Shown in pieces: positions 48,091 through 64,000 of a DNA stretch of 64,000 bases; position 1 is the stretch's first letter; every line of letters begins with the position of its first letter. A program made the position numbers and the translations under genes. The notes under the pieces are model-generated. The model searched no databases, was not told the origin of the DNA, and saw nothing but the letters and a program-made list of their open reading frames with translations. The stretch is from the NCBI GenBank assembly GCA_016785015.1, contig JADHTJ010000007.1, positions 4,615-68,614 on the forward strand, given 5' to 3'. Origin of the DNA: Anaerolineales bacterium (GTDB taxonomy: Bacteria > Chloroflexota > Anaerolineae > Anaerolineales > UBA11858).

Positions 48091-49818
48091 ATGAACTACA
48101 GTAAAAAATGGCTAAAAGGCTTGGTGTTTGGGCTTATCACGCTGATGATAATTGTTAGCGTTGTGAGCTGCGCGCCAAAGCCGGCGGCCGAAGAACCCGC
48201 TGCCGAAGAACCGGCTGCAGAAGAACCCGTCATGGAAAAGACCAGCATCACAATTATGATCCCAGACAATCCCGTAGCATTCAATGGTATTAATACCGAC
48301 ACGGGGTACGAACAGGCTTTGGGAGAACTGGTTATGCTCTCGCTGGCAGAAGTTGACCCCAATGGCAACCTCTATCCGGAATTGGCAGCCGAGATTCCCA
48401 CCGTCGAAAATGGCGGTGTGGTTGTCGATGAAGATGCCTGGACGATGACAGCCACCTGGAAGCTGCGCGCGGATGTCTACTGGGCAGATGGCGAGCAGGT
48501 CACGGCAGATGATGTCGTCTTTACCTGGAATGCCATGGTAGATGCCGGAGCATGGTACGCGCCGATGGATTACACAGATTCGGTTGAAAAGGTTGATGAC
48601 TTCACTGTCCTGGTTACCTTTAACACGGTATTTCCCGCTTACGATCTAATGTTTGGCGGAGAAGATGTCTTCATCTATGCCGAGCACTACTGTGACGCTG
48701 AGGCGGGTTTTTACGAGTGGAATTGTGATGATCAGCCTCTGAGCAGTGGCCCATATATCCTCGAAGAGTGGGTTGCCGATGATCACCTGACATTTGTCAG
48801 AAATGAGAACTATTACGAAGAGGGCAAACCGGCCATCGACCAGATCATCGTTCAGATTGTTCCTGAAGAACCCGTCAAACAAGCCATGTTGCTCGAAGGC
48901 GATGCCGATCTTCACTACTGGCCGGCAGAGCCTGCTTCTGATGTGTACAAAGAGGAAGGCAATGCCGCTAACTATGCAAAATCGCCCACGGAACGCTGGG
49001 TGATGAGATTGATCCCCAACATGTATGTCAAAGGGGATCGTGAAACCCCACACCCATTCCTCTCAGATGTAAACGTACGGCGCGCTATGCGCATGGCAGT
49101 TGATGTAGACACGATCATCGATGATATTTTCCTCGGTTACGGTGTACCGGTCTGGAACGACTTTTTCCGACCGCCTTTCAATGGATGTGATATCCCCAGG
49201 CCAGAATATGACCTGGAAGGCGCGGCCGCGCTGTTGAAGGAAGCCGGCTGGGAAGACACCGATGGTGATGGTATCAATGAGTGCCACGGCTGCCCCAACG
49301 CTGAAGAAGGCACGCTGATGACTATGGAATTCGCAATCTACGCTGAATATGGCGAACCCCTGGAATTGTCGCAGCAGCTCATCGCTGAAAGCTGGAAATC
49401 GATTGGAATTGCTACCGAACTGCAGATCATCGAAGGCGCTATCATGTGGGCTGAGGAAGAAGATGGCGGCACTGAAATTGCCGGCAACTTCGAACTCGAT
49501 ATGTGGGATGACGGCTATGCCGGCACCGACCCAGCCGACCAGATCTGGACTTTCTATTCTTCCGGAAGCGATTGGAATTACGGTTGGTGGGTAAACGAAG
49601 ATATGGATGCCTGGATCGATGAATTCTATTCGCTGGATGAAGAGTACCGGCTAGAAGTCGGCTGTGAAATGGCAGCTATTCTTGAAGCTGAACTGCCGCA
49701 GATTTTGCTCTTCTCAACACTGGAACAGCATGGCATTTCTTTACGGCTTAAAGGCGTGCTCCCCTCAGCCAATGATCCTGTGACCTGGAACATTGCAGAT
49801 TGGACGCTTGAAGAATAG
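48091..49818 (+). CDS. ABC transporter substrate-binding lipoprotein, family 5 (peptide/opine/nickel type)
   Basis: Signal peptide plus lipobox VVSC, an (AAEEP)x3 linker, then an SBP_bac_5-like body. Confidence 0.85.
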   Translation: MNYSKKWLKGLVFGLITLMIIVSVVSCAPKPAAEEPAAEEPAAEEPVMEKTSITIMIPDNPVAFNGINTDTGYEQALGELVMLSLAEVDPNGNLYPELAAEIPTVENGGVVVDEDAWTMTATWKLRADVYWADGEQVTADDVVFTWNAMVDAGAWYAPMDYTDSVEKVDDFTVLVTFNTVFPAYDLMFGGEDVFIYAEHYCDAEAGFYEWNCDDQPLSSGPYILEEWVADDHLTFVRNENYYEEGKPAIDQIIVQIVPEEPVKQAMLLEGDADLHYWPAEPASDVYKEEGNAANYAKSPTERWVMRLIPNMYVKGDRETPHPFLSDVNVRRAMRMAVDVDTIIDDIFLGYGVPVWNDFFRPPFNGCDIPRPEYDLEGAAALLKEAGWEDTDGDGINECHGCPNAEEGTLMTMEFAIYAEYGEPLELSQQLIAESWKSIGIATELQIIEGAIMWAEEEDGGTEIAGNFELDMWDDGYAGTDPADQIWTFYSSGSDWNYGWWVNEDMDAWIDEFYSLDEEYRLEVGCEMAAILEAELPQILLFSTLEQHGISLRLKGVLPSANDPVTWNIADWTLEE

Positions 49819-49846
49819 AACATAGAGACTATCGTTCGTTTAAATA

Positions 49847-49876
49847 GGGGGAGGTTCATTATTTGGACCTCCCCCC
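49847..49876 (+). promoter_or_regulatory. Intra-operon hairpin between the SBP and permease genes
   Basis: gggggaggt...acctccccc stem. It overlaps the ORF-track start 49863, which supports ATG 49893 as the permease start. Confidence 0.45.
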
Positions 49877-49892
49877 GTATATAGGAGTGAGT

Positions 49893-50933
49893 ATGGGAAC
49901 ATATATCATACGCCGTCTGCTTCAGGCCATCCCGATGTTGTTTTTAGTCAGCATTGTTCTTTTTGCGTTGGTCAACATCGCCCCAGGCGGACCAATGAGC
50001 GCTTACAGCCGCACAAATCGGATGCCTGAGGAGAAGAAAGAAGCCATCCGGCGGTCATTTGGCCTCGATAAACCATTGCCGGTTCAATATATAGTCTGGT
50101 TGGTGGGGAATGACTGGATGCAGATTGATACGGATGGAGATGACATCCCAGACGGCTATGGAACTCGTAGAGGTATCTTGCGCGGTGATTTTGGTTTTTC
50201 ATACAAGAATCGTGAACCTGTATTAGACCAAATTGCAGATCGGCTGCCCAACACGGTCTACTTGATGTTCTTCACATTGCTCTTCACCGGAATCGTCGCG
50301 ATTCCGATTGGCATTATTTCAGCAATCAAACAATATTCTGGCTTTGATATTACAGCCACAACCTTATCCTTTATGGGGCAGGCCATCCCTGAATTCTGGT
50401 TGGGCCTACTCCTAATCCTGATCTTTTACGCCACTCTAAACAATCCGTTCACTGGCGAAGCCCTACTACCTTCAGGTGGTATGTATACCCTGGGAGAAGA
50501 ATTCTCCATTTGGGACAGGGTCAAACATCTGATCCTTCCCGTTACCATGGGGATGGTGGGTTGGATCGCCTGGTATTCACGCTTCCTGCGCTCCAGCATG
50601 CTTGAAGTCATCAATCAAGATTACATCCGCACAGCACGTGCAAAGGGGCAACTCGAGCGAAAAGTACTCTATAAACATGCCCTCAGAAATGCACTTATCC
50701 CTTTAGTCACCATGTTTGCCTTAGATTTTCCATACATATTTACAGGTTCCCTTTATGCTGAGTTGCTCTTTTCCTGGCCGGGAATGGGGCGCTTGTTCTA
50801 TACCTCGGCGACATCTCGAGATTACCCCATTCTGTTGGCAATCTTGATCATTGGAGCTGGCATCGTTGTTCTGAGCAATTTAATGGCCGATATCGCTTAC
50901 GCATATTTAGATCCAAGAGTGCGTTACGAATAG
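49893..50933 (+). CDS. ABC transporter permease (DppB/OppB-like)
   Basis: MGTYIIRRLLQAIPMLFLVSIVLFAL N-terminus and an EAA-loop region (YIRTARAKG). Confidence 0.9.
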   Translation: MGTYIIRRLLQAIPMLFLVSIVLFALVNIAPGGPMSAYSRTNRMPEEKKEAIRRSFGLDKPLPVQYIVWLVGNDWMQIDTDGDDIPDGYGTRRGILRGDFGFSYKNREPVLDQIADRLPNTVYLMFFTLLFTGIVAIPIGIISAIKQYSGFDITATTLSFMGQAIPEFWLGLLLILIFYATLNNPFTGEALLPSGGMYTLGEEFSIWDRVKHLILPVTMGMVGWIAWYSRFLRSSMLEVINQDYIRTARAKGQLERKVLYKHALRNALIPLVTMFALDFPYIFTGSLYAELLFSWPGMGRLFYTSATSRDYPILLAILIIGAGIVVLSNLMADIAYAYLDPRVRYE

Positions 50934-50954
50934 TTGAGAGTTACAACAAACCTT

Positions 50955-51896
50955 ATGAACTCCAATGAAAAAAAACTCGAAATAAAAGGCGAAGCAAGCG
51001 CTGGAATGCGCCCTCCAGAAACAATGACCAGCATGGCCTGGAAGCGTTTCCGCCGCCACCCAGGAGCCATGATTGGGGCAGTTGTATTGGTAATCTTGAT
51101 CTTAGCAACCCTGTTTGCCGGTTTATCCCCCTATGATCCAGAAAAATCAGATATCAAGAACAGGTTCCAAGCACCTTCATGGGAACATCCTTTTGGAACT
51201 GATGGGTTAGGAAGAGATCTTTTGACCCGCACCCTCTTTGGAGGGCGGGTTTCTTTGTCCGTGGGACTGATGGTAGTCGGCATAACCTTGAGCATTGGAG
51301 TCCCCATCGGTTCGATAGCCGGTTTCTATGGTGGGTGGGTAGACGCCATCCTGATGCGGATTATTGATGCCACGCTCTCAATCCCTTCGTTGATGTTTCT
51401 AATTCTTTTGGCCGCCATCCTGCGTGAGACCGATCTGCCCTTTGTTAAAGGCAACAGCGTCATGACCATCGCAGTGGTTCTGGGAGTACTTACCTGGCCA
51501 ACCGTTGCCCGGTTGGTGCGGGCGGTTTTTCTCACCGTGCGGGAGTTGGAATATGTTAAGGCTGCCGAGGCTTTAGGCGCCTCGGACTTGAGGATTATCG
51601 TGAAAGAAGTATTACCCAATGGTTTTGGCCCCGTTATTGTTGAGTCTACTTTGGGTGTAGGCTATGCCATTATGGAGGAATCGGGCTTATCATTTTTGGG
51701 GTTTGGGATTATGCCGCCGACACCTAGCTGGGGCAATTTGCTCAATAATGCCCAAGAACATCTCATCCAATATCCCTGGTTGGCAATATTCCCCGGTATG
51801 ATGATCTTTTTTACCATCATTTCTGTTAATTATATTGGAGATGGACTACGAGATGCCTTAGACCCTTATAAAGTGCTTGCAGAAATTGGAGAATAA
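50955..51896 (+). CDS. ABC transporter permease (DppC/OppC-like)
   Basis: HPFGTDGLGRDLLTR motif, 6 TM helices, EAA-like YVKAAEALGAS. The start is uncertain (TTG 50934 or ATG 50955). Confidence 0.85.
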   Translation: MNSNEKKLEIKGEASAGMRPPETMTSMAWKRFRRHPGAMIGAVVLVILILATLFAGLSPYDPEKSDIKNRFQAPSWEHPFGTDGLGRDLLTRTLFGGRVSLSVGLMVVGITLSIGVPIGSIAGFYGGWVDAILMRIIDATLSIPSLMFLILLAAILRETDLPFVKGNSVMTIAVVLGVLTWPTVARLVRAVFLTVRELEYVKAAEALGASDLRIIVKEVLPNGFGPVIVESTLGVGYAIMEESGLSFLGFGIMPPTPSWGNLLNNAQEHLIQYPWLAIFPGMMIFFTIISVNYIGDGLRDALDPYKVLAEIGE

Positions 51897-51916
51897 AAAA
51901 AGTTAAATAGGACAAT

Positions 51917-53371
51917 ATGTCTACATCACAAACAATTATTACGCCAATTAAAACCGATTTGAAGCTTAACTGCCTGACGGATGAACAGCTCAGTCAGTTG
52001 CAGGAAGCCACACTCCAAATTTTGGAGACCGTGGGTGTGAAATTCCCTTCGGACAAAGCCATGGCCATATTCGAAGAGCATGGCGCTCAGGTTGACAGGG
52101 AGACTCAAATTGTCAGGATCCCGCGCGAGCTGGTCATGCAGGCCATGTCCACGGTGCCGCGTTATTTCACCTTAGGAGCTCGTAACCCTGAGCTCGACTT
52201 GCAATTGCAAGACGGTGTCACTTTCTTTACTAATGACGGCTGTGGTCACGATGTCGTTGATTCCAAAACAGGCGAACGACGAGCATCTACAAAAGCTGAC
52301 GTAGGTATGATGGCGCGGATCAATGATTACCTGTCATCTATGTCATTTAGTTGGACCATGGTTAGTGCTCAGGATTGTGGTGTTACCTCCCCCCTTCATG
52401 AGATAGATATTACCTGGAGAAACAATACAAAACACTATCAGAGTGTTACGATGATGGGTGAGGAGATTTGTCGCTACGGGGTGGAAATGGCAACTGTGCT
52501 GCGAGGAAGCATAGAAGAGGTGCGACAGCGTCCGCCAATATCATTAATTGTTTGCTCCATTGCACCTCTAGTTCAAGATAAAGAGGCAATTGAAGGGGCG
52601 CTGGTTTTAGGGGAAGCTGGAATCCCAATAGTGGTGATGTCTATGCCGACCATGGGAACAACGGCCCCTGCCACATACGCCGGAGCACTGGCAGTTGGGG
52701 ATGCAGAAGTTATCAGTGCCACAGTGTTGATGCAATTGGCCAATCCTGGAGCGCCCGTGTTTCATTCAATCTTGCACGCTTGGGCTGACCCCCGCACGGC
52801 TGCGTATGTTGGCTATCCATTGGATTCACGCGCCCGCTATGCTCCGGTTGAAATGGCTCATCATTGGGGAATGCCTGCTCTTGGCGGGGCGTTTGGTACT
52901 GAGAGCCCTGAGCTGGATAGTTGGCAATCGGCTGCCGAAGTCGCCACAGATCCGCTCCTGGTAGGATTGGCTGGGGCTGAAATCGTAACCGGTATTGGTT
53001 TGCGGGATTCTTATACATTGCTCTACCCTGAAGCTATCATCCTTGACGATGATCTTCTCCATCAGGCGCGTTATTCCTTGCTTAATATGGAAGTCAGTCC
53101 AGAAACCCTGGCCATCGATGTGATTTCTAAAGTTCAGCCGGGTGGGCACTTCTTGAGCCAAAAGCACACTCGCAAACACATGCGCACAGCAATGGTGCGC
53201 GGTGTATGCCACCAATTGGATTCAGAGGGAAAGTATCGTCATCCAGTTGAATACGCACGCGAGAAAGTTACATGGATATTAAAGAATCATCATCCGGAAA
53301 CACCCTCAGCAGAGGTGCAGAAAGAAATCAACCGGATTTTGGAAACAGCTGATAAAGAGCTAAAAGGGTAA
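51917..53371 (+). CDS. MttB-superfamily (non-Pyl) substrate:corrinoid methyltransferase
   Basis: EEHGAQVD, MARINDYLSSMSFSWTMVSAQD, GHFLSQKHTRKHM. Confidence 0.9.
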   Translation: MSTSQTIITPIKTDLKLNCLTDEQLSQLQEATLQILETVGVKFPSDKAMAIFEEHGAQVDRETQIVRIPRELVMQAMSTVPRYFTLGARNPELDLQLQDGVTFFTNDGCGHDVVDSKTGERRASTKADVGMMARINDYLSSMSFSWTMVSAQDCGVTSPLHEIDITWRNNTKHYQSVTMMGEEICRYGVEMATVLRGSIEEVRQRPPISLIVCSIAPLVQDKEAIEGALVLGEAGIPIVVMSMPTMGTTAPATYAGALAVGDAEVISATVLMQLANPGAPVFHSILHAWADPRTAAYVGYPLDSRARYAPVEMAHHWGMPALGGAFGTESPELDSWQSAAEVATDPLLVGLAGAEIVTGIGLRDSYTLLYPEAIILDDDLLHQARYSLLNMEVSPETLAIDVISKVQPGGHFLSQKHTRKHMRTAMVRGVCHQLDSEGKYRHPVEYAREKVTWILKNHHPETPSAEVQKEINRILETADKELKG

Positions 53372-53376
53372 TTCTC

Positions 53377-54768
53377 GTGTATTCATTGCAGTCAGCCTTA
53401 TCCGAAGGTGATGTCAAACGCATCCACGAGCACAGCCTGGATGTGCTTGAGAATGTTGGCATCGACTACAAGACTCCCAAGGCACTAGAAATCCTGGAAG
53501 AGCGGGGTTGTCGTGTTGACTATGACCGAAACTGGGTTTCTATCTCTCCAGACCTGGTAGAGTGGGCCATTGATCAGGCACCACGCGATGTGCTTCTTTC
53601 TGCCCGTGATCCTGAGCGCGATGTTCTGTTAGATGGAAAAAGCTCACACCATACAACCGACAGCCAGGGCACCCAGGCGACAGATTTTGAAACCGGTAAA
53701 GTCCATGATTCTGGCGCCGAGGACCTAAAGAAGATGCTGCTTGTCGCTGATGTGCTGGATAAGGTTGAAATCGTCAATGTGACTGTTTCAGCAAGCGACA
53801 TCCCTGCCCACTTACGTACGATTTATCACTTTGCCCAGGCATTTACCCTGACGAGTAAGCACGTGCGCACGGGGGTGCTCAATGCACAGCAAGTGCAATT
53901 CCTGGTTGAGCTTGTTAAGGCTGTGACTGGAAATGATGCCTTCAGACCGATCTTCTCCGTTGTAGATTGCACCATCTCTCCTTTAATGCACGATGGTCCC
54001 ATGACCGAAGCATGCATCGAATTGGCCAAGCTTAATGTCCCTATTATGGTTTATCCCATGCCTCTGGCTGGCGGAACTTCACCCGTCACGCTTGGGGGCA
54101 CTATGTTGATGCATAATATCGAATTCCTGAGTGGATTGGTACTCTTCCAATGTACCAACCCGGGTGCGCCGATAATTTATGGGACGGGCTCGTCACAGTT
54201 GGATATGAAGACGGGTCGCTACGGGGGCAGCGCCGATGGCTATGGGGTTGGGGCAGCATTGATCAATCTGGCCCGCCTCTATGATCTCCCAGCAAACCTG
54301 GGAGGCACATCGACCAAATCAAAACAGCTCGATGCTCAATATGGATATGAAGCTCTGGCGGCAACGATGCTGTCTTATCTGGCGGGTGCCGATGAAATCT
54401 ACAGCGTGGGGTTGTTGGGCGCGGCTCAAATCCTGTCATTGGACAAGATGGTTTTGGATAACCATATCATTCACCAGCTTGAAGCCATGTTGAGGCCTAT
54501 TAATTTGGATGAAGATCACCTTCAAGCAGAATTGATCAAGCAGGTTGGCATTGGAGGAGAATTTCTCACGCAGAGGGAAACCTTGAAATATACCCGCACA
54601 GAATATGTCCCCATTTGGCCGCCCCATGGAGTGGATTTGCTGGATATGATCCACGCCGAGGCGCAGGAAATCCTTGAGACTCATACCCCACCCCCTCTAC
54701 CAGATGGGGCAGAAACGCGCATTCAAGAAATTCTAGATGAAGCGGATAAGGCATTAGTTGACAAATGA
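53377..54768 (+). CDS. MttB-superfamily methyltransferase, divergent paralog
   Basis: GTG start. IHEHSLDVLENVGIDY and GGEFLTQRETLKYTR. Overall collinear with the MttB fold, with no in-frame TAG. Confidence 0.8.
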   Translation: MYSLQSALSEGDVKRIHEHSLDVLENVGIDYKTPKALEILEERGCRVDYDRNWVSISPDLVEWAIDQAPRDVLLSARDPERDVLLDGKSSHHTTDSQGTQATDFETGKVHDSGAEDLKKMLLVADVLDKVEIVNVTVSASDIPAHLRTIYHFAQAFTLTSKHVRTGVLNAQQVQFLVELVKAVTGNDAFRPIFSVVDCTISPLMHDGPMTEACIELAKLNVPIMVYPMPLAGGTSPVTLGGTMLMHNIEFLSGLVLFQCTNPGAPIIYGTGSSQLDMKTGRYGGSADGYGVGAALINLARLYDLPANLGGTSTKSKQLDAQYGYEALAATMLSYLAGADEIYSVGLLGAAQILSLDKMVLDNHIIHQLEAMLRPINLDEDHLQAELIKQVGIGGEFLTQRETLKYTRTEYVPIWPPHGVDLLDMIHAEAQEILETHTPPPLPDGAETRIQEILDEADKALVDK

Positions 54769-55895
54769 AGCATCAAAAGGCGAAAACCCCGCGTGAGTTA
54801 GGCTACACCATGCCTGCAGAATGGGAACCCCACGAGGGTACCTGGTTGATATGGCCGCATAGCGATACTCAAGAAGATTCACAATTCCAACTGGAGCATC
54901 TCTGGCTGGAGATGACGATGGTTCTGCATGAGCACGAAACTGTTCATATCATTGTTCCAGATGATCATCGCGAAGAACACCTGCATCATCAGTTAAGGTA
55001 TTACGGCTTGAAAGAGAGCAAAATTGATGTTCAGGTTATCCCCAATGATGATGTCTGGGTGCGAGATTGTGGCCCCGTTTTTTTGGTGAATGATCAAGGT
55101 GAGTTGGCTGTCACTGAATGGAATTTCAACGGTTGGGGGGAGAGATTTTCCTTCAAAAAGGACCGTTTAGTACCAGCAAGAGTTGCAGAGATAGTGTCGC
55201 TGCCTTTGTACTCGGCACCCATCATCCTGGAAGGAGGCGCGATTGAAGTCAATGGTCAAGGAACCCTGATTGCCACCCGCAGCTCGATTATCAATCCCAA
55301 TCGGAACCCCAGGTTTAGTCAGCAAGAGATAGAAGCTGCTATCAAAGATTATTTTGGCATTGAAAATATTATTTGGCTTTCGGGGGCATCACGGGAATTC
55401 TGTGATTTCGTTGGCAGTGATACAGATCTTCATGTGGATGGCTATGCCCGTTTCAGCGATGATTCCACAGTGCTGTATTCCTGGACAGACGATGAGGACA
55501 ATCATTTTTATCCGATTCTGAAACAACACCGGGATGAACTGAGAAATGCCCAGACTGAATCGGGGAAAAAATTGACATTGGTGTGCCTGCCGAAGCCTAA
55601 AAACGAGATGTACTCAACACTCACGTCTGCCACACGCCCGCCATTCGATAGTTTCCTGTCTTTGGGCACCTATGCAAATTTCTATATCGCTAACAATGTT
55701 GTGCTGGTTCCGGTATATGGCGATGTCAATGACGCTGTTGCAAAGAGTATCATCGCTGAACACTTCCCAACTCGAGAGATCATTGGCATTCCAGCTTGGC
55801 GTACAGCGGAACGAGGTGGCATGATGCATTGTGTAACTCAGCAGCAGCCTATGCCCTCACCCCAACCCCTCTCCCACGGTGAGAGGGGCTTATAA
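54765..55895 (+). CDS. aguA: Agmatine deiminase (PAD_porph family)
   Basis: GYTMPAEWEPHEGTWLIWPH, DVWVRDCGPVF, and catalytic Cys in GGMMHCVTQQQP. ATGA overlap with the upstream mttB-like gene. The last 13 aa are encoded by a hairpin repeat. Confidence 0.9.
   Translation: MKHQKAKTPRELGYTMPAEWEPHEGTWLIWPHSDTQEDSQFQLEHLWLEMTMVLHEHETVHIIVPDDHREEHLHHQLRYYGLKESKIDVQVIPNDDVWVRDCGPVFLVNDQGELAVTEWNFNGWGERFSFKKDRLVPARVAEIVSLPLYSAPIILEGGAIEVNGQGTLIATRSSIINPNRNPRFSQQEIEAAIKDYFGIENIIWLSGASREFCDFVGSDTDLHVDGYARFSDDSTVLYSWTDDEDNHFYPILKQHRDELRNAQTESGKKLTLVCLPKPKNEMYSTLTSATRPPFDSFLSLGTYANFYIANNVVLVPVYGDVNDAVAKSIIAEHFPTREIIGIPAWRTAERGGMMHCVTQQQPMPSPQPLSHGERGL
55866..55888. repeat. GC-rich hairpin repeat (CCCCTCTC-ccacggt-GAGAGGGG) forming the 3' end of aguA-1
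   Basis: Read directly. Same style as the C/G-run hairpins at 13426-13450 and 16741-16791. Confidence 0.55.
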
Positions 55896-55903
55896 AAGGC
55901 TCT

Positions 55904-56989
55904 ATGATAGCAAAGCATTTCAACCCTGCTGAATTCCGTATGCCCGCCGAATGGGAACCCCATGATGGCACCTGGCTGCAGTGGCCGCAGGACAAAGTTT
56001 ATGACGGCTATGAGTTGAAGCTGGAACGCATCTGGCTGCATATGGTCGACGCGCTCAACGATCACGAAAATGTACATATCATTGTCAACGGTGAGCGGCA
56101 GAGCGACCACATCGTGGATCAATTGGAATACTACAAAATTGGTTCGAAAAACGTGCACTTTTACGTCATTCCCACCAACGATGTTTGGGCACGCGATAAT
56201 GGGCCGATTTTTGTAATCAATGATGCTGGGCAGGTTGCTATCACCGACTGGGCTTTCAACGGTTGGGGCGATCGCTTCCCTTATGACTTGGATGATAAAG
56301 TTCCAGCGGCGATTGGCGAAGAGGTTGGAATTCCAGTCTTCAAGGTACCAATGGTTCTGGAAGGGGGTGCCGTTGGGGTCAATGGTAAAGGTACCTTCAT
56401 GGCCACAAAATCATCCATCATCGATACGTTTCGCAATCCGGGGAAGAGCCAGGCCGATATTGAAGGGGTTCTCAGTCAATACCTGGGTGTGACCCACTTC
56501 ATCTGGTTGACGGGTGCCGGACGGGATGAGTGCGGTTTATGGGGCGATGAAACCGACTCGCACATCGATATCGTCGCTCGCTTTTCTGATGAATCCACGG
56601 TGTTGTACAACTGGACGGATAATGAAAACGACCCCCGATATGGTATGCTGCGTAAATCTCTTCAGGAATTGAAGAACGCAACCACCGAGTCAGGTAAACC
56701 GATGACCCTGGTACCTTTACCTATGCCCGAGGTCTATCAAACTTCTGGGATGACGGACTGGCGCAGGAGTACCCTGACCGATGCGGCGTACAGCAATTAT
56801 CTGATTGCCAACGACATTGTCTTGGTACCTGTATATGGACATGCCCATGACAAGCGAGCATTAGCCATAATCGCCGAACATTTCCCTGGCAGAGAAGTTG
56901 TCGCTATTGAAGTGGTCGCCCTGATCGAGCATGGCGGCGCCATTGGGTGTGTCACCCAACCTCAACCTTTGGCTATGGTTGATGAATAG
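55904..56989 (+). CDS. aguA: Agmatine deiminase family protein, tandem paralog
   Basis: FRMPAEWEPHDGTWLQWPQ, DVWARDNGPIF, GGAIGCVTQPQP. Confidence 0.9.
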   Translation: MIAKHFNPAEFRMPAEWEPHDGTWLQWPQDKVYDGYELKLERIWLHMVDALNDHENVHIIVNGERQSDHIVDQLEYYKIGSKNVHFYVIPTNDVWARDNGPIFVINDAGQVAITDWAFNGWGDRFPYDLDDKVPAAIGEEVGIPVFKVPMVLEGGAVGVNGKGTFMATKSSIIDTFRNPGKSQADIEGVLSQYLGVTHFIWLTGAGRDECGLWGDETDSHIDIVARFSDESTVLYNWTDNENDPRYGMLRKSLQELKNATTESGKPMTLVPLPMPEVYQTSGMTDWRRSTLTDAAYSNYLIANDIVLVPVYGHAHDKRALAIIAEHFPGREVVAIEVVALIEHGGAIGCVTQPQPLAMVDE

Positions 56990-56998
56990 GAGCTTGCA

Positions 56999-57955
56999 GT
57001 GAGTAATATTGTCAACCTTGGTCTTATCCAGATGACCTGCTCCGATGATGTGCAGGCAAACTTCGAGAAAACGTTGGGCTATATTGAGCAGGCTGCCTCG
57101 GAAGGCGCTCAGATTATCTGTACCCAGGAGCTGTTCAAATCGCTTTACTTCTGCCAATCGGAAGATTTCGCTCATTATGATCTAGCGGAGGATGTTTCCC
57201 AAGATGGCTCAACAGTTCAAACGTTGAGTCAATTGGCAAAGGAATTACGAGTAGTGCTCATCGCCAGCCTGTTCGAAAAGCGAGCCCTGGGCCTTTACCA
57301 CAACACAACTGTGGTCATCGATGCCGATGGGGGCTACTTGGGTAAATATCGCAAGATGCATATCCCCGATGATCCGCATTATTATGAGAAGTTTTACTTC
57401 ACCCCCGGAGATTTGGGGTACAAAGTTTTTCATACCCAATACGCTGACATTGGTGTGTTGATCTGTTGGGATCAATGGTATCCCGAAGCGGCGCGCTTGC
57501 TGGGTTTGCAGGGGGCTGAAATCATCTTCATCCCTACTGCCATAGGTTACTCTATGCCAGAGGAAGGATCCACTTATGATCAGTCCTGGCAAATTGTCCA
57601 AAGGGGGCATGCGGTCGCCAATGCCTGCTACCTGGCTGCGGTCAACCGGGTGGGTTTTGAAGTGGACCCTTCGACTTCCCTCAGGGCAAGCCCTTCGATT
57701 GCACTGCCAGCATCTGATGACCATATGTCTGGCGTAGGACCCAATGGAGAGAGCGGCATCAATTTTTGGGGCCAGAGCTTCGTCGCTGACCCCGATGGGA
57801 GCATCGTGAAACAGGCTTCCAGAGATCGAGATGAGCTTGTCATTTGCCCCGTTGATTTAGCGCTGATTGAAGAAACCAAGAAACTGTATTCCTTCCCTTA
57901 TCGCGATCGACGAGTGGATAGCTATGGCGATCTGCTCAAGTTATATTCCGATTGA
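56999..57955 (+). CDS. aguB: N-carbamoylputrescine amidase (nitrilase/CN-hydrolase superfamily) with an internal insertion
   Basis: GTG start with an aggag RBS. Motifs LGLIQM, QELF (Glu), YRKMHIP (Lys), VLICWDQWYPE (Cys), AVNRVG...FWGQSF. Confidence 0.9.
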   Translation: MSNIVNLGLIQMTCSDDVQANFEKTLGYIEQAASEGAQIICTQELFKSLYFCQSEDFAHYDLAEDVSQDGSTVQTLSQLAKELRVVLIASLFEKRALGLYHNTTVVIDADGGYLGKYRKMHIPDDPHYYEKFYFTPGDLGYKVFHTQYADIGVLICWDQWYPEAARLLGLQGAEIIFIPTAIGYSMPEEGSTYDQSWQIVQRGHAVANACYLAAVNRVGFEVDPSTSLRASPSIALPASDDHMSGVGPNGESGINFWGQSFVADPDGSIVKQASRDRDELVICPVDLALIEETKKLYSFPYRDRRVDSYGDLLKLYSD

Positions 57956-57972
57956 ATTTGTATGGAGAAATA

Positions 57973-59421
57973 ATGGCCAACACAACACCTGCCATCGAAC
58001 CTATTGTTCCAGCCTATCGTATTCGTATCCTTAGCGATGATCAACTGGAAAAATTCAAAACGAACACCTTTGAAATTCTCCAAGAAGTTGGCATTCATTG
58101 CCCGTCGGAAAGGGCATTGAAGATATATGCAGAACATGGTGCCAATGTTGATTTCGAATCCAAAATTGTCAAAATGTCTCCGGACGTTGTCTTGGAAGCC
58201 CTCTCTCATGCACCTCGCTATTACACAATGGGAGGGCGTACAGAAGCTTTCGACCTGGATCTGTCAAAAGGCGTTACGTATGAAGCGACAGATGGAACCG
58301 GCACCACGACCATTGACTATGATACCGGTGAAAAGCGTTCATCGATCAAAGACGATGTGGCCAAGTCTGCCCGAATAGCAGATTATCTTTCATCGGTCAG
58401 CTTTTATTGGCCCATGGTCAGCGCGCAAGATCACCCAGCGACGCCTTCTCTTCACGAATTAGATGCCTCTTTCAATAATACGCTCAAGCACGTCCAAACC
58501 CCCACAGTTGTTGAGGAAGTAACAACGCGTTATGCAATCGAAATGGCCAAAGTCATCGCTGGGAATGAGGCCACAATGCGGGCGCGCCCGCCGCTCTCGC
58601 TGTTGATTTGCACGATTTCCCCATTAGCACAGGATGCTGAAAGCATGGATGCGGCCCTTGTCGCTGCAAAAGCAGGCATCCCGGTTGGCTTTATGGCCAT
58701 GCCCAACACCGGTTCCACATCGCCTGCTACCATCGAAGGCACAATTTCCGTAGGCGATGCGGAAATGGTATCGGCCATGGCGCTGATCCAGATGGCGTAT
58801 CCCGGCGCGCCAATCTATTATTCTTTCATGCCTGGGCTGACGCACCCACGCACTGGGGCCTATTTGGGCCACGAGGCTACCATATACGCTGTTGGCGTCG
58901 AGTTAGCGCATATGTGGGGCGTGCCCACGCTTGCGGGAACCTTTGGAGGGGGCGCAACATACCCAGGTTGGGAATCGACCATGGGGGGAGGCGTGGCATC
59001 CCTGCTATGCGCCTTATGTGGAGGAGAAACCGGTAGCGGTATGGGGCTGCTAAAAGGCAGCACGCTGCTTTATCCAGAAGGCCTGGTTTTGGATGCCGAG
59101 CTCTATCACAACGTACGGCACAATGCAGGCGGTGTAGATACCAGCTCAGATAAAATGGCGCTGGATGTGATCAAAGCAGTGGGGCAGAGAGGCCATTACC
59201 TGGGCCAGCGCCATACGCGTGATTTCATGCATAAATTTGATTTCTCGGATGTGGTTTATGTCCCCGAAAAGGATGGCGCTTACCGAGACCCCATTGAAGT
59301 GGCCAGGGAGAAAACCAATTGGATCCTGGAGAATCATCATCCTGAACCCCTCGAGCCTGAGAAAAAGGCTGAGTTGGATAAGATCCTTCAGAAAGCAGAT
59401 GCGGAGCTGGGAGGAAAATGA
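57973..59421 (+). CDS. MttB-superfamily (non-Pyl) substrate:corrinoid methyltransferase
   Basis: ATG 57973 aligns with the paralog N-termini. AEHGANVD, SARIADYLSSVSFYWPMVSAQD, GHYLGQRHTRDFM. Confidence 0.9.
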   Translation: MANTTPAIEPIVPAYRIRILSDDQLEKFKTNTFEILQEVGIHCPSERALKIYAEHGANVDFESKIVKMSPDVVLEALSHAPRYYTMGGRTEAFDLDLSKGVTYEATDGTGTTTIDYDTGEKRSSIKDDVAKSARIADYLSSVSFYWPMVSAQDHPATPSLHELDASFNNTLKHVQTPTVVEEVTTRYAIEMAKVIAGNEATMRARPPLSLLICTISPLAQDAESMDAALVAAKAGIPVGFMAMPNTGSTSPATIEGTISVGDAEMVSAMALIQMAYPGAPIYYSFMPGLTHPRTGAYLGHEATIYAVGVELAHMWGVPTLAGTFGGGATYPGWESTMGGGVASLLCALCGGETGSGMGLLKGSTLLYPEGLVLDAELYHNVRHNAGGVDTSSDKMALDVIKAVGQRGHYLGQRHTRDFMHKFDFSDVVYVPEKDGAYRDPIEVAREKTNWILENHHPEPLEPEKKAELDKILQKADAELGGK

Positions 59422-60857
59422 AAACTCAAATCCAGGTTCTTTCAGAGCAGGAAAAGCACCGGGTGCATGAATCCACCCTGAAAATTCTGGCCAATACTGG
59501 GGTCAGAGTTGAAACGGCGCTGGGTCGCAAGTACCTGGCTGATGCCGGCGCGCAGGTTGATGAATCTACCAGAATCGTCAAATTTCCGCGAGATTTCGTC
59601 GAAGAATGCCTCCAGCTCGCGCCTCGGGAGTACACCCTGGGTGCCCGCCGTCCTGGTTGGAATTTACAGATGAACACCGGTGAATGTGTGCTGATGATCG
59701 ATGGTTCGGCGCCTACAGTGTTGGATCATGGTCAGGTCGAATCGCGCCCCGGGCAATTTGATGATTGGCTCAACGCCACCAGGCTGACCGATGTCATGGA
59801 TGATTTTGGTGTTTATTGGGGGATGGTCGAGGCCAACGATAGCGGCGAAGGCATGGATGAGTTGGTCAATTATTGGCGGCATTTATTTAGCAATTTCTCC
59901 AAACACATTCAAGATGGCATCGAGGACAAAGATGCCGCGCCCTGGCTGCTGGAAGCGCTGCAGGTCGTCTTTGGCGATAAGGAAACCATTCGCCGCACGC
60001 ATCCTTATTCTTTCCTAATTTGCCCGCAATCACCGCTGACTATTGACGAAGTGTACACCGATGCCTATCTGGCATTGGTGGGCTATGACATCCCTGTGGC
60101 GATCATGCCCATGCCCTTGATGGGTGGCACCGCCCCGGGAAATATGATCTCCACCACCATTCAGGGCAACTGCGAAGTTATCTCCACCCTGTGCTTGCTC
60201 CAGGCCGCCGCCCCAATGACGCCCATCATCTACGCCCCCGCGCTGGCCACTATGGATCCCCGCACGGGATTATATGGCGCTGGCCGTATTGAGAATGGCA
60301 TCTTAAGCATGGCATGTGTGGAGATGGGTAAGTATTATGGTTTGCCAGTGGAAGGGTCTGGTGGGGGAACCGACCATTATATTCCCAGCATTCAAGCTGG
60401 ATATGAAAGAGCCATTTCGGCTGTGTTACCCATTTTATCCTGGCCGGATTTATTGGTGGGTGCCGGTTTGATGGGTGGTTCTATGGTTTTGAGCTTGGAG
60501 CAGTTAATCATTGATGTGGAAGTTTTTCGCATGAGCAAACACACCGCCAGGGGTATCGATTGCGCAGAAGAAGCCTGGCTGGACGACGTGATTGCGAACG
60601 TAGGCCCCGGCGGACATTACCTTGAGGAAGATTCAACCATCAAGGCCATGCGCGGGGGAGAGTATTATCACCCCCAAATTGGGCATCACGGCCCCTTCGA
60701 TTCCTGGCTGGATGGCGGGCAGCCTGATCTGTTAGAAGAAGCTCACCAGCGAGTTCAAACATTGTTAGCTGAACATAATCCCTTACCGCTTCCACCCGAT
60801 GTAGAAGCGGAGTTGATCCAACTGCAAGGACGGGCCGCAGAGTTAGCGGCAGCTTGA
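59418..60857 (+). CDS. MttB-superfamily methyltransferase, divergent paralog
   Basis: ATGA overlap with the upstream gene. VHESTLKILANTGVRV, ADAGAQVD, GGHYLEEDSTIKAMR. Confidence 0.8.
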   Translation: MKTQIQVLSEQEKHRVHESTLKILANTGVRVETALGRKYLADAGAQVDESTRIVKFPRDFVEECLQLAPREYTLGARRPGWNLQMNTGECVLMIDGSAPTVLDHGQVESRPGQFDDWLNATRLTDVMDDFGVYWGMVEANDSGEGMDELVNYWRHLFSNFSKHIQDGIEDKDAAPWLLEALQVVFGDKETIRRTHPYSFLICPQSPLTIDEVYTDAYLALVGYDIPVAIMPMPLMGGTAPGNMISTTIQGNCEVISTLCLLQAAAPMTPIIYAPALATMDPRTGLYGAGRIENGILSMACVEMGKYYGLPVEGSGGGTDHYIPSIQAGYERAISAVLPILSWPDLLVGAGLMGGSMVLSLEQLIIDVEVFRMSKHTARGIDCAEEAWLDDVIANVGPGGHYLEEDSTIKAMRGGEYYHPQIGHHGPFDSWLDGGQPDLLEEAHQRVQTLLAEHNPLPLPPDVEAELIQLQGRAAELAAA

Positions 60858-60869
60858 GGAGGAATCTCT

Positions 60870-62318
60870 ATGTACATCAATGGAGAATATACAACTGGTA
60901 AATCGACTGAACGCATCCCGATTATCAATCCGGCGACAGAAGAGATCTTGGAGGAAGTGCCGCGCGGTACGCCTGAAGATGCTGTCGCCGCAGTCGAAGC
61001 AGCGGGAGCAGCTTTCCAAATTTGGAAGCGGATGCCTGCCAACGAGCGTGCGGCTGCCTTGCATGAGGTGGCGACGAAAATCCGCGCCCACCATGATGAG
61101 ATCGTACGCCTGCTGACGCAAGAGGAAGGCAAGCCCATCCCTGAGCATGAGGAAGAGCTCTGGTGGGTGGAGGAGACATTCGATTATTATGCCGAATTAG
61201 CCCGCCACGAGCGCGGCCGGGTGATCCCTCCGGGAGAGACGGGCCAGTTTAACTTTGTGATCAAAGAGCCTTATGGCGTGGTGGCCTGCATTGTTCCCTG
61301 GAATTACCCGCTCTTGCTGCTGGCCTGGAAAATGGCCCCGGCACTGGCTGCTGGTAACACAATAGTGATTAAACCTTCCGAGCTGACACCGCTTGCCACA
61401 TTGAAGCTGGTCGAGGTGGCCTGCGACCACTTACCCCCTGGGGTTGTCAATGTGGTCACGGGCTTTGGTCCTGAGGTTGGCGAACCCTTAGTCACGCACC
61501 CTGATGTGCCGGTGATCGCCTTTACTGGCTCGCTGGCTGTGGGACAGAGAATTGCCTCGTTGACCGCGCCGATGATGAAGAAACTGCACCTGGAATTGGG
61601 CGGCAAAGACCCTATGGTCATCGCGCCCGATGTGGCCATGGATCAGGCGGTCAGCGGCTTGGCCTATTCGGCGCTGCTCAATACGGGGCAAGTCTGCACC
61701 AGCACAGAGCGGGTATATGTGCACGAGAGCATCATGCCCCAGTTCAGTGAAGAACTGGCCGATTTCGTCGGTAAATTGCGTTTGGGTAACGGCCTGGATG
61801 ATGACACAGATATCGGGCCGATGATCCGCGATAAGTTCCGCGTCAAGGTCGAGGAGCAGTTATCTGAGGCAGTTGCAGCGGGAGCAAAGACCCTCATTGG
61901 GGGGCAGCGACCACCCCAAATATCGAAAGGTTTCTTCCTGACTCCGGCTGTGGTGACTAACGTCGATCACAGTATGCGCTTGATGACCGAGGAGACCTTT
62001 GGGCCGGTCATCCCCCTGATGCCTTATAAAGATTTTGACGAGGCTATCCGTCTGGCGAATGACTGCAAATATGGTTTGGGCGCTTGCCTGATGACCTATG
62101 ATGCCCGGCTAGTCAAGCGTTTCTTCGAAGAGGTCAAAGCGGGCACCATCTGGATTAATGATCCCCTGACTGACAATTTTGCCGGACCCTTCGGTGGTAT
62201 GAAGATGAGCGGACTGGGACGAGAGCTTGGGCAGGAAGGCTTAGATGAATTCTACGAAGTTAAGCATGTTCATTGGGATATCGAAGGTGGCGTGAAAGAC
62301 TTCTGGTATCCGTATTAG
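60870..62318 (+). CDS. NAD(P)+-dependent aldehyde dehydrogenase (aminoaldehyde/betaine-aldehyde-type)
   Basis: RBS gaggagg. Motifs IVPWNYPLL, KPSELTPL, ELGGKDP and catalytic GQVCTSTER. Confidence 0.9.
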   Translation: MYINGEYTTGKSTERIPIINPATEEILEEVPRGTPEDAVAAVEAAGAAFQIWKRMPANERAAALHEVATKIRAHHDEIVRLLTQEEGKPIPEHEEELWWVEETFDYYAELARHERGRVIPPGETGQFNFVIKEPYGVVACIVPWNYPLLLLAWKMAPALAAGNTIVIKPSELTPLATLKLVEVACDHLPPGVVNVVTGFGPEVGEPLVTHPDVPVIAFTGSLAVGQRIASLTAPMMKKLHLELGGKDPMVIAPDVAMDQAVSGLAYSALLNTGQVCTSTERVYVHESIMPQFSEELADFVGKLRLGNGLDDDTDIGPMIRDKFRVKVEEQLSEAVAAGAKTLIGGQRPPQISKGFFLTPAVVTNVDHSMRLMTEETFGPVIPLMPYKDFDEAIRLANDCKYGLGACLMTYDARLVKRFFEEVKAGTIWINDPLTDNFAGPFGGMKMSGLGRELGQEGLDEFYEVKHVHWDIEGGVKDFWYPY

Positions 62319-62369
62319 CTTCAAGTCACAGAGTCACAAGTGGCAAGAGGCAAGTCACAAGTGGCAAGA
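62319..62369. repeat. Left inverted-repeat flank of the four-helix-bundle cassette (CAAGTCACAAGTGGCAAG iterations)
   Basis: Read directly. It is the reverse complement of motifs in 62784-62854. Confidence 0.55.
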
Positions 62370-62404
62370 TGTAGATGAAGTAGATTGGCTTCAAGGAGTT
62401 TTGA

Positions 62405-62788
62405 GTGGCGAGGGATTTTCGTAAAATCATTACCTGGCAGAAAGCTGATGATTTAGCCATGGATGTTTACAAATATTCTGCGCAATACTTTCCTGCCGAG
62501 GAAAAATTTGGATTGACATCTCAACTTCGCTCGGCACCTTTATCAGTTCCGGCTAATATCGCTGAAGGTTCTGTTAGAAATACGTTGAAGGATTTCTTGC
62601 GGTTCCTGTATTTCGCCCAGGGGTCACTTTCAGAAGTTGAATACTATTTGCACTTTGTAAAGCGGCTTGAATACATTGATCAAGATACCTACTCAAATTT
62701 GGAAGCACAGCGTGCAGAATTAGGCAGAACTCTAAACGGCTTCATCAATTCAATTAAAAACAAAGTCGCCAAAGGTGAAACAACTTGA
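62405..62788 (+). CDS. Four-helix-bundle protein (23S rRNA intervening-sequence protein / Avd-like, TIGR02436)
   Basis: ITWQKADDLAMDVYKYS..FP..EKFGLTSQLRSA..SVPANIAEG...FLYFAQGSLSEVEYYLHF is the classic family pattern. GTG start. Confidence 0.85.
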   Translation: MARDFRKIITWQKADDLAMDVYKYSAQYFPAEEKFGLTSQLRSAPLSVPANIAEGSVRNTLKDFLRFLYFAQGSLSEVEYYLHFVKRLEYIDQDTYSNLEAQRAELGRTLNGFINSIKNKVAKGETT

Positions 62789-62854
62789 GACTTGTGACTT
62801 GAGCCTTGAAACTTGAGACCTGAGACTTGCGACCTGAGACCTGAGACCTGAGAC
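62784..62854. repeat. Right inverted-repeat flank (CTTGAGACTTGTGACTTG..., GACCTGA iterations)
   Basis: Read directly. CTTGTGACTTG is the reverse complement of CAAGTCACAAG in the left flank. Overlaps the stop codon of the cassette gene. Confidence 0.55.
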
Positions 62855-62861
62855 ATGAACC

Positions 62862-64000
62862 ATGAAACTTACATCTTTTTGGACTGACGATTACCCTCGC
62901 CCTGACGATCTTCAGGTGGTTGAAGAACTTCCATCTGATACCAAAGTGGCTATCATTGGTGGTGGCTATACTGGACTGAGCGCGGCGCGCACCCTGGCCA
63001 AGAGCGGAGTCTCCGTGACGGTGCTCGAAAGCGAGACCATTGGTTGGGGGGCTTCCTCACGCAATGCCGGCATCACAGGCTGCAGCCTGAAACAGAAATC
63101 GCACAAGATATTTAAAATATATGGTGAAGAATACGGCCACATGTTTTGGGAAATTTCTTTGGATGCCCTGGAATTGATCAAGGAACTCGTTTACGAAGAG
63201 GGGATCGATTGCGATTGGCATCAGAATGGGGATATGTGTGTGTACTATAAACCTTCCCATTATGAAGAGAATCCGGAATGGAAACATTGGCATAAAGACA
63301 CATTGGATCATGAGTTGGAATTAGTCGCGCCTGAAGATCTGCGATCGGTTATTGGCAGTAATGCATATTACGGTGGATTGATCGATGAGCATGGCGCCGA
63401 TTTGCATCCGGCGAAACTGGTTTTTGGAATGGCGGAAGTTGCTGCCAAATACGGCGCCCTCTTATGTGAAAATGCAGCAGTAACCCGAATCGATAAACAA
63501 GCCAACGGATATCTTGTTCATACAGATCGAGGAAGCATACAAGCCGATCACGTTGTTGTTGCCACGAACGGTTATACCGATGGTGTGGTGCGAGGATTAC
63601 GATCCAGGGTCATCCCCGTAGGAAGCTACAGTATAGTCACTGAACCGTTGTCTGAAGAAATACAACAAGAAATCAGCCCGCGAGGTTTGACGTTCTGGGA
63701 TAGTAAATGGTTCTTGAATTATTTCCGCCTGACCCCCGATGGCCGCATGCTTTGGGGTGGTCGCAATAATTTGAGCACCACGCTTGATTTAGTGGGATCA
63801 GCGGAGATCCTGCGAAAAGAGATGGTGCGTGCTTTTCCGCAACTGAGAGATATCCCTGTCACCCATTCCTGGTCTGGTCAGCTTGGCTTGACCTTTGATT
63901 TGATGCCTCATATTGGGACTATCGACGGAATTTACTATGCCTTGGGTAATTGTGGGCATGGCTTGCATACGGCTATCTATCTGGGACGCGAAGTTGCACA
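62862..64000 (+). CDS. FAD-dependent oxidoreductase (DAO family, PuuB/OrdL-like), 3'-truncated by the window end
   Basis: Not in the ORF track because no stop falls in the window. My translation from ATG 62862 reads MKLTSFWTDDYPRP..KVAIIGGGYTGLSAARTLAKSG..GASSRNAG... and stays open to nt 64000. Confidence 0.85.
   Translation, partial: MKLTSFWTDDYPRPDDLQVVEELPSDTKVAIIGGGYTGLSAARTLAKSGVSVTVLESETIGWGASSRNAGITGCSLKQKSHKIFKIYGEEYGHMFWEISLDALELIKELVYEEGIDCDWHQNGDMCVYYKPSHYEENPEWKHWHKDTLDHELELVAPEDLRSVIGSNAYYGGLIDEHGADLHPAKLVFGMAEVAAKYGALLCENAAVTRIDKQANGYLVHTDRGSIQADHVVVATNGYTDGVVRGLRSRVIPVGSYSIVTEPLSEEIQQEISPRGLTFWDSKWFLNYFRLTPDGRMLWGGRNNLSTTLDLVGSAEILRKEMVRAFPQLRDIPVTHSWSGQLGLTFDLMPHIGTIDGIYYALGNCGHGLHTAIYLGREVA

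Follow-up and report, generated by a model that had tools for sequence, protein, structure and literature searches.

In anoxic environments, genes of the MttB family rank with the most numerous of the methyltransferase genes that lack an assignment, and about six of their substrates are known. Members without pyrrolysine (Pyl), the non-Pyl MttBs, are known to act on glycine betaine, proline betaine, carnitine, gamma-butyrobetaine and phosphocholine (PMC13080624). The closest such systems are MtgBC of Desulfitobacterium hafniense, MtpB/MtcB/MtyB/MthB of Eubacterium limosum, and the clusters of 'Candidatus Formimonas warabiya' DCMF, where several MttB-type enzymes have been proposed, though not proven, to remove methyl groups stepwise (PMC9768040). 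Agmatine degradation by AguA and AguB, as encoded by aguBA of Pseudomonas aeruginosa or by plant AIH plus CPA, is the other relevant system. Here we analyse a 64-kb stretch of DNA from an Anaerolineales bacterium (contig JADHTJ010000007.1; the whole 64,000 nucleotides are called the window below), in which the two systems are interleaved. Like MtgBC and the E. limosum systems, the locus combines non-Pyl PF06253 proteins, a corrinoid protein with the DxHxxG motif and uptake genes; like DCMF (PMC9768040), it has several MttB-type methyltransferases in one cluster; and like aguBA and its plant counterpart, it has the two agmatine enzyme families in tandem. An earlier prediction made for this DNA (the original prediction) held that the two chemistries have not been linked in any described pathway, and our literature search indeed found no paper linking MttB with agmatine deiminase. 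This mttB-aguA-aguB pairing is real and recurrent in uncultured Anaerolineales.

A packed string of plus-strand genes occupies 47365-62318 of the window, and runs from the corrinoid protein and an ATP-binding cassette (ABC) importer through the MttB and Agu genes to an aldehyde dehydrogenase (ALDH). Its members are as follows.

47365-48033, plus strand: corrinoid (cobalamin-binding) protein, MtgC-like, the cognate one; PF02310 and PF02607, with DxHxxG
48091-49818, plus strand: substrate-binding protein of the peptide/opine/nickel family (SBP_bac_5); PF00496
49863-50933 and 50934-51896, plus strand: two ABC permeases; PF00528
51917-53371, plus strand: MttBa, non-pyrrolysine MttB of group I; PF06253, Gly at the Pyl position
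53377-54768, plus strand: MttBb, an orphan paralog, optional; PF06253, Ser at the Pyl position
54765-55895, plus strand: AguA1, agmatine-deiminase family, core member of the cassette; PF04371
55904-56989, plus strand: AguA2, second deiminase paralog, optional, 48% identical to AguA1; PF04371
56999-57955, plus strand: AguB, N-carbamoylputrescine-amidase-like CN-hydrolase; PF00795
57952-59421, plus strand: MttBc, group I; PF06253, its start overlapping the AguB stop
59418-60857, plus strand: MttBd, an orphan paralog; PF06253, Glu at the position of MtgB Arg312
60870-62318, plus strand: ALDH of the aminoaldehyde/betaine-aldehyde type, optional; PF00171

The list of open reading frames reproduces every gene at the coordinates of the original prediction, and the Pfam E-values run from 3e-52 to 9e-78 for PF06253 (MTTB) in the four operon MttBs and are about 1e-98 for PF04371 in both AguAs. 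Three 4-nt overlaps were found in this co-directional string, namely ATGA at MttBb/AguA1, TTGA at AguB/MttBc (with a TTG start) and ATGA at MttBc/MttBd (each −4 nt), and the gaps at MttBa/MttBb, AguA1/AguA2, AguA2/AguB and MttBd/ALDH are 5, 8, 9 and 12 nt, respectively. Coordinates, Pfam matches and junctions thus bear out the claim of one tightly coupled gene string, and the corrinoid protein and importer do lie directly upstream (Pfam), as had been said. The predicted junctions of ATGA, 8 nt, 9 nt, ATGA and 12 nt also stand; the value of about 17 nt at AguB/MttBc holds only if ATG at 57973 is the start (+17 nt), otherwise the TTGA overlap takes its place. The unit starts at the corrinoid gene, at 47365 or 47386, the ATG at 47386 being likely the true start. 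A scan for promoter- and terminator-like sites within the string gave no excess over shuffled sequence, and the best promoter-like site of the region is at 46662-46690. There is no Rfam match at the gathering score anywhere in the window, nor any tRNA gene, and a riboswitch or other RNA control was rejected on the Rfam result. The genes of the unit are almost certainly co-expressed, and the unit is old within its lineage.

To place this arrangement among relatives, AguA1 was scanned against one genome per species, yielding 31 loci (loci are cited by L numbers below), 29 of them from Anaerolineales/Chloroflexota metagenome-assembled genomes at 61-87% identity. The cassette is flanked by MttB genes in every Chloroflexota locus that holds an AguA1 relative (29/29); outside Chloroflexota, the scan gave two alphaproteobacterial AguA2-like genes (42-45% identity) with no MttB nearby. 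The recurrent order is (AsnC-MttB22-(MttB24)-Corr or Corr-SBP-permeases)-MttBa-(MttBb and/or MttB31-like) in the upstream half, followed by AguA1-(AguA2)-AguB-MttBc-MttBd, where Corr is the corrinoid gene, SBP the substrate-binding protein and brackets mark optional genes. MttBb is found in about one third of the loci and AguA2 in about 10 of the 29 genome loci, and MttBa is the most conserved MttB of the cluster (orthologs 77-90% identical); MttBc and MttBd form a tight pair, adjacent in most loci. One group of genes that belongs to the recurrent order lies apart in the present genome:

21987-25571, plus strand: AsnC regulator, MttB22 and MttB24 (Pfam), 25 kb from the operon in this genome

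In relatives these three genes stand directly upstream of the corrinoid gene, as in L018 and L019, which read AsnC-MttB22-MttB24-Corr-MttBa-MttBb-AguA1-AguA2-AguB-MttBc-MttBd. On the complete chromosome of L006, a six-gene module stands alone among GreA, aminoacyl-tRNA synthetase and RtcB genes, and the gene order is reshuffled in L020 and L021, with an MttB gene between AguA1 and AguA2/AguB, and in L023, with an S15 peptidase between AguB and MttBc. This isolation and reshuffling speak against mere inheritance of synteny, since membership survives the rearrangement. A fortuitous juxtaposition, a quirk of one genome, or an assembly or annotation artefact is hardly conceivable when the arrangement is shared by 29 species-level genomes and by at least 12 metagenome contigs that are independent and stem from many samples, and when it outlasts local rearrangements. 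Chance or single-genome juxtaposition is ruled out by this recurrence, and the pairing that the original prediction wished to see in other genomes is not unique to this one. The cluster is widespread in uncultured Anaerolineales of marine, estuarine and soil metagenomes.

In addition to the AguA1 scan, metagenome contigs were scanned in reverse using the MttBd ortholog alignment, which yielded 80 loci, all close relatives (58-65% identity). AguB lies directly upstream of MttBc-MttBd in at least 12 of these contigs, and MttBc-MttBd and their neighbours occur without AguA/AguB in about nine (L052, L061, L090, L046, L057, L103, L050, L062 and L074). One cassette-free operon is that of L052, which reads AsnC-MttB22-Corr-SBP-permease-permease-MttBa-MttBc-MttBd-DAO-SDH (DAO, a flavoenzyme family; SDH, saccharopine-dehydrogenase-like); its binding protein is 84% identical to that of the window, so that the same importer is present without the cassette. 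The L079 cluster (7089-8399) carries AguA1 with no detectable AguB between MttBa and MttBc, reflecting either a decaying cassette or reliance on another decarbamoylating enzyme. In a neighbour-joining MttBc tree the cassette-less clusters are nested among the cassette-bearing ones, and this nesting points to several independent cassette losses. The dependence is asymmetric: the AguA1 clade is seen only within MttB clusters, and the MttB core occurs without the cassette.

This asymmetry bears on a possible but doubtful explanation, which we rank second, namely a single chemically linked pathway for imported dicationic N-methylated C4-type amines, in which AguA/AguB would act as a feeder that uncaps the guanidino form, for instance N-methylated agmatine, quaternary agmatine or a guanidino-polyamine, to give the free amine. 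The MttBs would then strip the N-methyl groups, possibly stepwise, and ALDH, DAO, aminotransferase and SDH-like enzymes would degrade the diamine or polyamine. An AguA1 clade always in MttB clusters, beside an MttB core that can stand alone, is the pattern expected of a feeder module; however, the cassette-less L052 keeps the importer and the MttBs, and the losses were repeated.

A further 19 contigs hold an MttBd-like gene in another setting, followed by an amino-acid/polyamine/organocation (APC) permease. The MttBd-like gene immediately precedes the APC-family permease in L037, L039, L049 and L055, and the string continues in L049 with another permease and an enzyme resembling trimethylamine dehydrogenase (OYE domain plus Pyr_redox_2). 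Such neighbours fit a quaternary-amine role of the MttBd relatives that is independent of AguA/B. L039 also encodes a large protein with a B12-binding domain.

Both deiminases of the cassette cover the PF04371 pentein fold completely (332 bits for AguA1 and 331 for AguA2, each match spanning positions 1-321 of the 321 in the profile), with 1xkn, 2ewo, 2jer and 1vkp as their best PDB relatives. Against TIGR03380 (cutoff 381.8 bits) AguA1 scores 263.4 and AguA2 239.9, both below the equivalog cutoff; proven Helicobacter/Campylobacter agmatine deiminases are more divergent, so these scores weaken AguA membership and do not exclude it. We have aligned them with AtAIH, EfAgDI and 1xkn, using AtAIH/MtAIH numbering and the residue roles of PMC6447857. 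The catalytic Cys366/His224/Asp226 and Asp94 are kept in the window AguAs, in 24/24 AguA1 orthologs and in the Anaerolineales AguA2 orthologs, and the tunnel residues Trp91/Trp125 and the amine-binding Asp89 are invariant, again including all 24 AguA1 orthologs. Position 220, which contacts the distal amine, is Asp in 22/24 AguA1 orthologs and Glu in 8/10 AguA2-group sequences. These acidic residues, which H-bond a primary amine and are kept by both AguA1 and AguA2, speak against the linked pathway. They also disfavour creatine or guanidinoacetate as the AguA substrate, the long Trp tunnel being conserved as well.

The GGNIHC motif has become GGMMHC in all 24 AguA1 sequences and GGAIGC in AguA2 (GGMMHCVTQ and GGAIGCVTQ in the window), so that AguA2 has Gly for His before the catalytic Cys. 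The original prediction took this change to be compatible with an altered substrate; the change is present, but AguA2 nonetheless keeps the residues that hold plain agmatine. Its further suggestion that two AguA paralogs handle successive intermediates is weakened, since only about one third of the clusters have AguA2. Bis(guanidino)homospermidine is deiminated by AguA homologs from many phyla, and N1-aminopropylagmatine iminohydrolases are also found among the homologs (PMC13625781). Guanidino-polyamines are therefore real AguA substrates, a point in favour of the linked pathway.

For AguB, the best PDB matches are 6mg6 (E 1e-76) and MtCPA 5h8i (E 7e-69), and its TIGR03381 score of 304.8 is below the equivalog cutoff of 410 bits. 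Among 37 orthologs, tabulated with the residue roles of PMC4812014, E48/K121/E132/C158 are kept in 37/37, and most residues of the hydrophobic C4 tunnel (Y54, P125, Y130, W159, W162, A183 and I184) likewise; Y130 is Tyr in 36 and Phe in one. In MtCPA, Glu187 at the tunnel entrance H-bonds the distal amine and is reported to fix substrate charge and length (PMC4812014). The corresponding position is Ser in the window AguB, and Ser in 32/37 orthologs and Thr in 3/37, in a loop region where the alignment is less certain, and a variable acidic residue occurs three positions past this site (Glu in 21/37). The replacement of Glu187 by Ser/Thr, beside an aromatic residue, also favours the linked pathway. 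Most Anaerolineales orthologs have in addition an insertion of 22-26 aa after NRVGFE (residues ~223-248, DPS...GVGPNGE), which is missing from the L080/L091/L111 branch, MtCPA and 6mg6. From these residues the cassette would be expected to act on an unbranched chain with a cationic tail, whose guanidino end it would turn into a primary amine.

Compared with aguBA and the plant route, the cassette keeps the AguA catalytic, Trp-tunnel and acidic residues and the AguB E-K-E-C tetrad and C4 tunnel. It differs in being embedded among MttBs and a corrinoid protein, in having a second AguA paralog with Gly for His, in GGMMHC/GGAIGC for GGNIHC, in an AguB without Glu187 and with an insertion, in its sub-cutoff scores, and in lacking an AguR-type regulator and an agmatine/putrescine antiporter. 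The guanidino-polyamine routes (PMC13625781) resemble it in their AguA paralogs and longer substrates, and in having HSS/CASDH-related dehydrogenases in the same metabolic area; however, those routes serve biosynthesis and their genes cluster with SpeY, SpeE or decarboxylases, all of which are missing here, whereas the present cluster has an importer, oxidases and ALDH and looks catabolic. The AgDI energy pathway of lactic acid bacteria was rejected, as no putrescine carbamoyltransferase, carbamate kinase or antiporter is present in the window or in the loci examined, and a CN-hydrolase (AguB) follows AguA in place of the AgDI partner genes. Anaerolinea thermophila makes putrescine via ornithine decarboxylation and its genome has no agmatine route (PMC10407285), which means that AguA/B are not housekeeping in the class of Anaerolinea. 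Housekeeping polyamine biosynthesis is disfavoured by this use of ornithine in A. thermophila, by the importer, oxidases and ALDH around the cassette, and by the lack of a decarboxylase, SpeE or SpeY.

The window encodes eight MttB paralogs, four in the operon and four further ones:

22499-23926, 24105-25571, 31808-33409 (minus strand) and 43669-45132: four further MttBs of the window (PF06253)

All eight genes have the PF06253 TIM-barrel over near-full length without an in-frame UAG, and the Pyl-aligned residue is Gly or Ser in 8/8. MttBa, MttBc, MttB24, MttB31 and MttB43 make up the group I subfamily (mutual identity 43-61%; MttBa and MttBc 44% identical), and MttBb, MttBd and MttB22 are orphans, none of which exceeds 31% identity to another MttB in pairwise comparison within the window. 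The two conserved/divergent MttB pairs proposed in the original prediction do not hold up, with MttBa and MttBc in one subfamily and MttBb and MttBd each an orphan. Strict 'conserved plus divergent' pairs or heterodimers are not supported either, MttBb being often missing or swapped for a group-I paralog.

We have compared the glycine-betaine-binding residues of MtgB, Y97, R312, H348 and F356 (PMC13080624), with their counterparts, and none of the eight window MttBs keeps the set. The residues at these positions are C/L/T/Y in MttBa, Q/N/Y/A in MttBb, T/L/S/S in MttBc and S(E)/E/V/S in MttBd. The candidate explanation that all MttBs are glycine betaine enzymes was rejected by this sequence comparison, and none of the operon MttBs appears to be a glycine betaine enzyme. 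From their family, they would be expected to demethylate permanently cationic amines, with the corrinoid protein as methyl acceptor. The carboxylate-binding Arg312 of MtgB is replaced by Glu in MttBd, a change that suits a second cationic group, as the linked pathway would have it, and the stepwise MttB-type demethylation proposed for DCMF (PMC9768040) is a precedent in its favour. Against it, the known non-Pyl MttBs take one methyl only, and from quaternary amines only.

Unlike MtgBC and the E. limosum systems, the operons considered here have 3-7 MttB paralogs with one corrinoid protein, MttBs without the MtgB substrate residues, an importer of the Opp/Dpp type instead of BCCT/OpuA, no MT2/RamQ-like activase nearby, and a guanidino-hydrolysing cassette inside. 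DCMF belongs to another phylum and is betaine-specific, with its own MT2 and BCCT transporters and no AguA/AguB. The cluster thus offers as many as seven uncharacterised MttB paralogs that share one corrinoid protein, and no paralog among them is a predicted glycine betaine enzyme.

Taken together, we rank first the reading that this is a composite operon for scavenging cationic amines, with the cassette as a facultative add-on to a quaternary-amine demethylase battery; our confidence in it is a little short of even. It is ranked first because the MttB core, importer and DAO persist without the cassette, AguA keeps a plain-agmatine site, and no joining metabolite is known. Gene content, translational coupling, recurrence, facultative presence and residue conservation can be read directly from the loci, and it is from sequence that we infer the activities, the substrates and the action of the two parts on different molecules. 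The core battery (MttBa, MttBc, MttBd and the optional MttBb) would pass methyl groups from a quaternary-type amine to the shared MtgC-like corrinoid protein. The facultative cassette (AguA1, optional AguA2, and AguB) would deiminate and then decarbamoylate agmatine or related guanidino-(poly)amines, yielding a free amine of the putrescine type, two NH3 and CO2. These amine products would be oxidised by the aminoaldehyde-type ALDH and the DAO flavoenzyme, a role that class-III aminotransferases, aldehyde:ferredoxin oxidoreductase and saccharopine/carboxyspermidine-dehydrogenase-like enzymes may take in relatives. The cassette would be expressed under the promoter and regulator that serve the MttB operon, and the MttB genes would not depend on the cassette.

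Several points weigh against the composite operon. The AguA1 clade is found only inside MttB clusters (29/29), and an independent agmatine pathway would be expected elsewhere in some genomes. The start/stop overlaps at both cassette borders suggest long co-evolution rather than a loose add-on. A single importer is encoded, with a binding protein of neither the betaine nor the polyamine type, and AguA1, AguA2 and AguB are all well under the NCBIfam equivalog cutoffs. Genes for a methylcorrinoid:tetrahydrofolate or methylcorrinoid:coenzyme M methyltransferase and a reductive activase were not found, there being no PF00809, PF01208 or RamA-type gene among the open reading frames of the 64-kb window; they may lie elsewhere in the genome. 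Finally, the whole case is built on comparative evidence.

The overlapping cassette borders and the single importer of the operon count for the linked pathway. In the full-text literature, methylated agmatine, trimethylputrescine and guanidino betaines appear only in passing mentions (plant metabolite lists), and the failure of searchable literature to yield natural methylated agmatine, trimethylputrescine or guanidino betaine counts against it. The original prediction of one pathway for a methylated guanidino-amine therefore stands in part: the coupled unit, its recurrence, the non-MtgB character of the MttBs and the lack of a described link agree with it, but the cassette is dispensable, the agmatine residues are kept and no such metabolite was found. 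That the operon is a new anaerobic route for dicationic N-methylated amines, guanidino-capped or free, with MttBs that accept the second charge, seems to us unlikely; if true, it would imply a so far undescribed pool of such metabolites in anoxic sediments and soils. The operon is an undescribed variant of known systems, and new chemistry is not yet evidenced. Still, the AguA/AguB cassette hints at an MttB substrate class, the cationic C4-type amines. Were the link chemical, the MttBs would gain a new substrate class and guanidino-amines a new sink; were it only regulatory, the locus would exemplify a facultative cassette carried along by a catabolic operon. The cluster would show abundant necromass scavengers recovering nitrogen and methyl groups together.

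Upstream of the operon lies a regulator gene, with orthologs of 90-91% identity in the equivalent position in L005 and L013:

46716-47204, plus strand: Lrp/AsnC-family regulator (Pfam PF01037/PF13412), directly upstream of the operon

The DxHxxG motif of the corrinoid protein reads GDLHEIGK, and the protein scores 223 bits against NCBIfam MtgC (cutoff 310). Its gene adjoins the cluster in most loci and is absent beside the L006 module. The binding protein has distant PDB relatives only (AppA, NikA, DppA and AccA). No ABC ATPase gene is present within the operon; the importer (48091-51896) consists of one binding protein and two permeases without ATPase genes, likewise in L001-L003, L005, L013 and L052, and its ATPases must thus be shared or encoded elsewhere.

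The peptide family of the binding protein and the Lrp/AsnC-type regulators would suit yet another reading, in which methylated basic amino acids or short peptides (trimethyllysine, methylarginines, N-terminally trimethylated peptides) enter via a Dpp/Opp-type importer, AguA acts on the guanidino group of arginine/homoarginine, AguB on the ureido group of citrulline/homocitrulline, and the MttBs on trimethylammonium groups. We consider it improbable. The APC amino-acid permeases beside MttBd relatives agree with it, as do the S15 X-Pro dipeptidyl peptidase of L023 and the amidase of L021, although these accessory hydrolases occur in single loci only. Neighbours resembling lysine/ornithine catabolism (saccharopine-DH-like, pipecolate-oxidase-like DAO, OCD-family and class-III aminotransferases) also agree with it, but the PF03435 pair mismatches the two saccharopine-pathway enzymes. 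Moreover, the narrow AguA Trp/Trp tunnel with two acidic residues and the unbranched AguB tunnel suit a decarboxylated C4 chain and speak against an alpha-carboxylate.

Downstream of MttBd, the best NCBIfam matches of the ALDH are aminobutyraldehyde dehydrogenase (453 bits, cutoff 615) and betaine-aldehyde dehydrogenase (442 bits, cutoff 669), both below cutoff, and an ALDH directly after MttBd was found only in cassette-bearing loci (L002, L027, L043, L072, L081 and L088). A second oxidative enzyme follows:

62862-64000, plus strand, running off the window: DAO-family FAD amine oxidoreductase (PF01266)

The 'PuuB-like' label given to this oxidase in the original prediction could not be confirmed, as the NCBIfam families that it matches best are of the pipecolate-oxidase and sarcosine-oxidase kinds, with scores far below cutoff. 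Against the single pathway of the original prediction, the DAO stays with the MttB core where the cassette is absent (L052).

The downstream partners vary among loci, being ALDH and DAO (window, L002, L027), a saccharopine-dehydrogenase-like pair and DAO (L007, L009, L017, L018), or a class-III aminotransferase, aldehyde:ferredoxin oxidoreductase and an SDH-like gene (L012, L015). SDH-like pairs (PF03435 plus PF16653) stand right after MttBd in L007, L009, L017, L018, L061, L063 and others, and as a triplet in L079; the window has none. The SDH-like protein has no NCBIfam match, and its best solved relative is a distant one, carboxyspermidine dehydrogenase 8deb (E 6e-19). This similarity of the downstream pairs to carboxyspermidine dehydrogenase adds to the points in favour of the linked pathway.

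Between the ALDH and the DAO gene sits a 23S-rRNA-IVS-protein gene (62405-62788, PF05635), with an imperfect 40-nt inverted repeat on either side (62333-62372 and 62780-62819). The stretch 62321-62873 also has a 7/14-nt repeat run (GAGACCT...) without a counterpart elsewhere in the window. The IVS-protein gene looks like a small genome-specific insertion, because no related locus has it there; it is the one local oddity, and nothing was found in favour of an artefact or a chance juxtaposition of the operon genes.

Beyond the operon, the window also contains two dimethylglycine-dehydrogenase-like fusions, three DAO flavoenzymes, a second ALDH, a class-III aminotransferase, an OCD-family gene and three AsnC regulators. 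With its eight MttBs and these amine-oxidising and aminotransferase genes, the region from 20 to 64 kb is probably an island for methylated-amine catabolism. It includes a second apparent operon on the minus strand (29326-37247), with an OCD/mu-crystallin-family gene, a class-III aminotransferase, an ALDH, MttB31 and a dimethylglycine-dehydrogenase-like fusion. The MttB31 open reading frame overlaps that of the ALDH by 122 nt and its Pfam match begins only with residue 34, which makes a true start at a more downstream position probable. Also on the minus strand, and unrelated to the operon, 16907-19786 encodes a 959-aa protein with three FHA domains, an ABC ATPase and an ABC-2 membrane domain.

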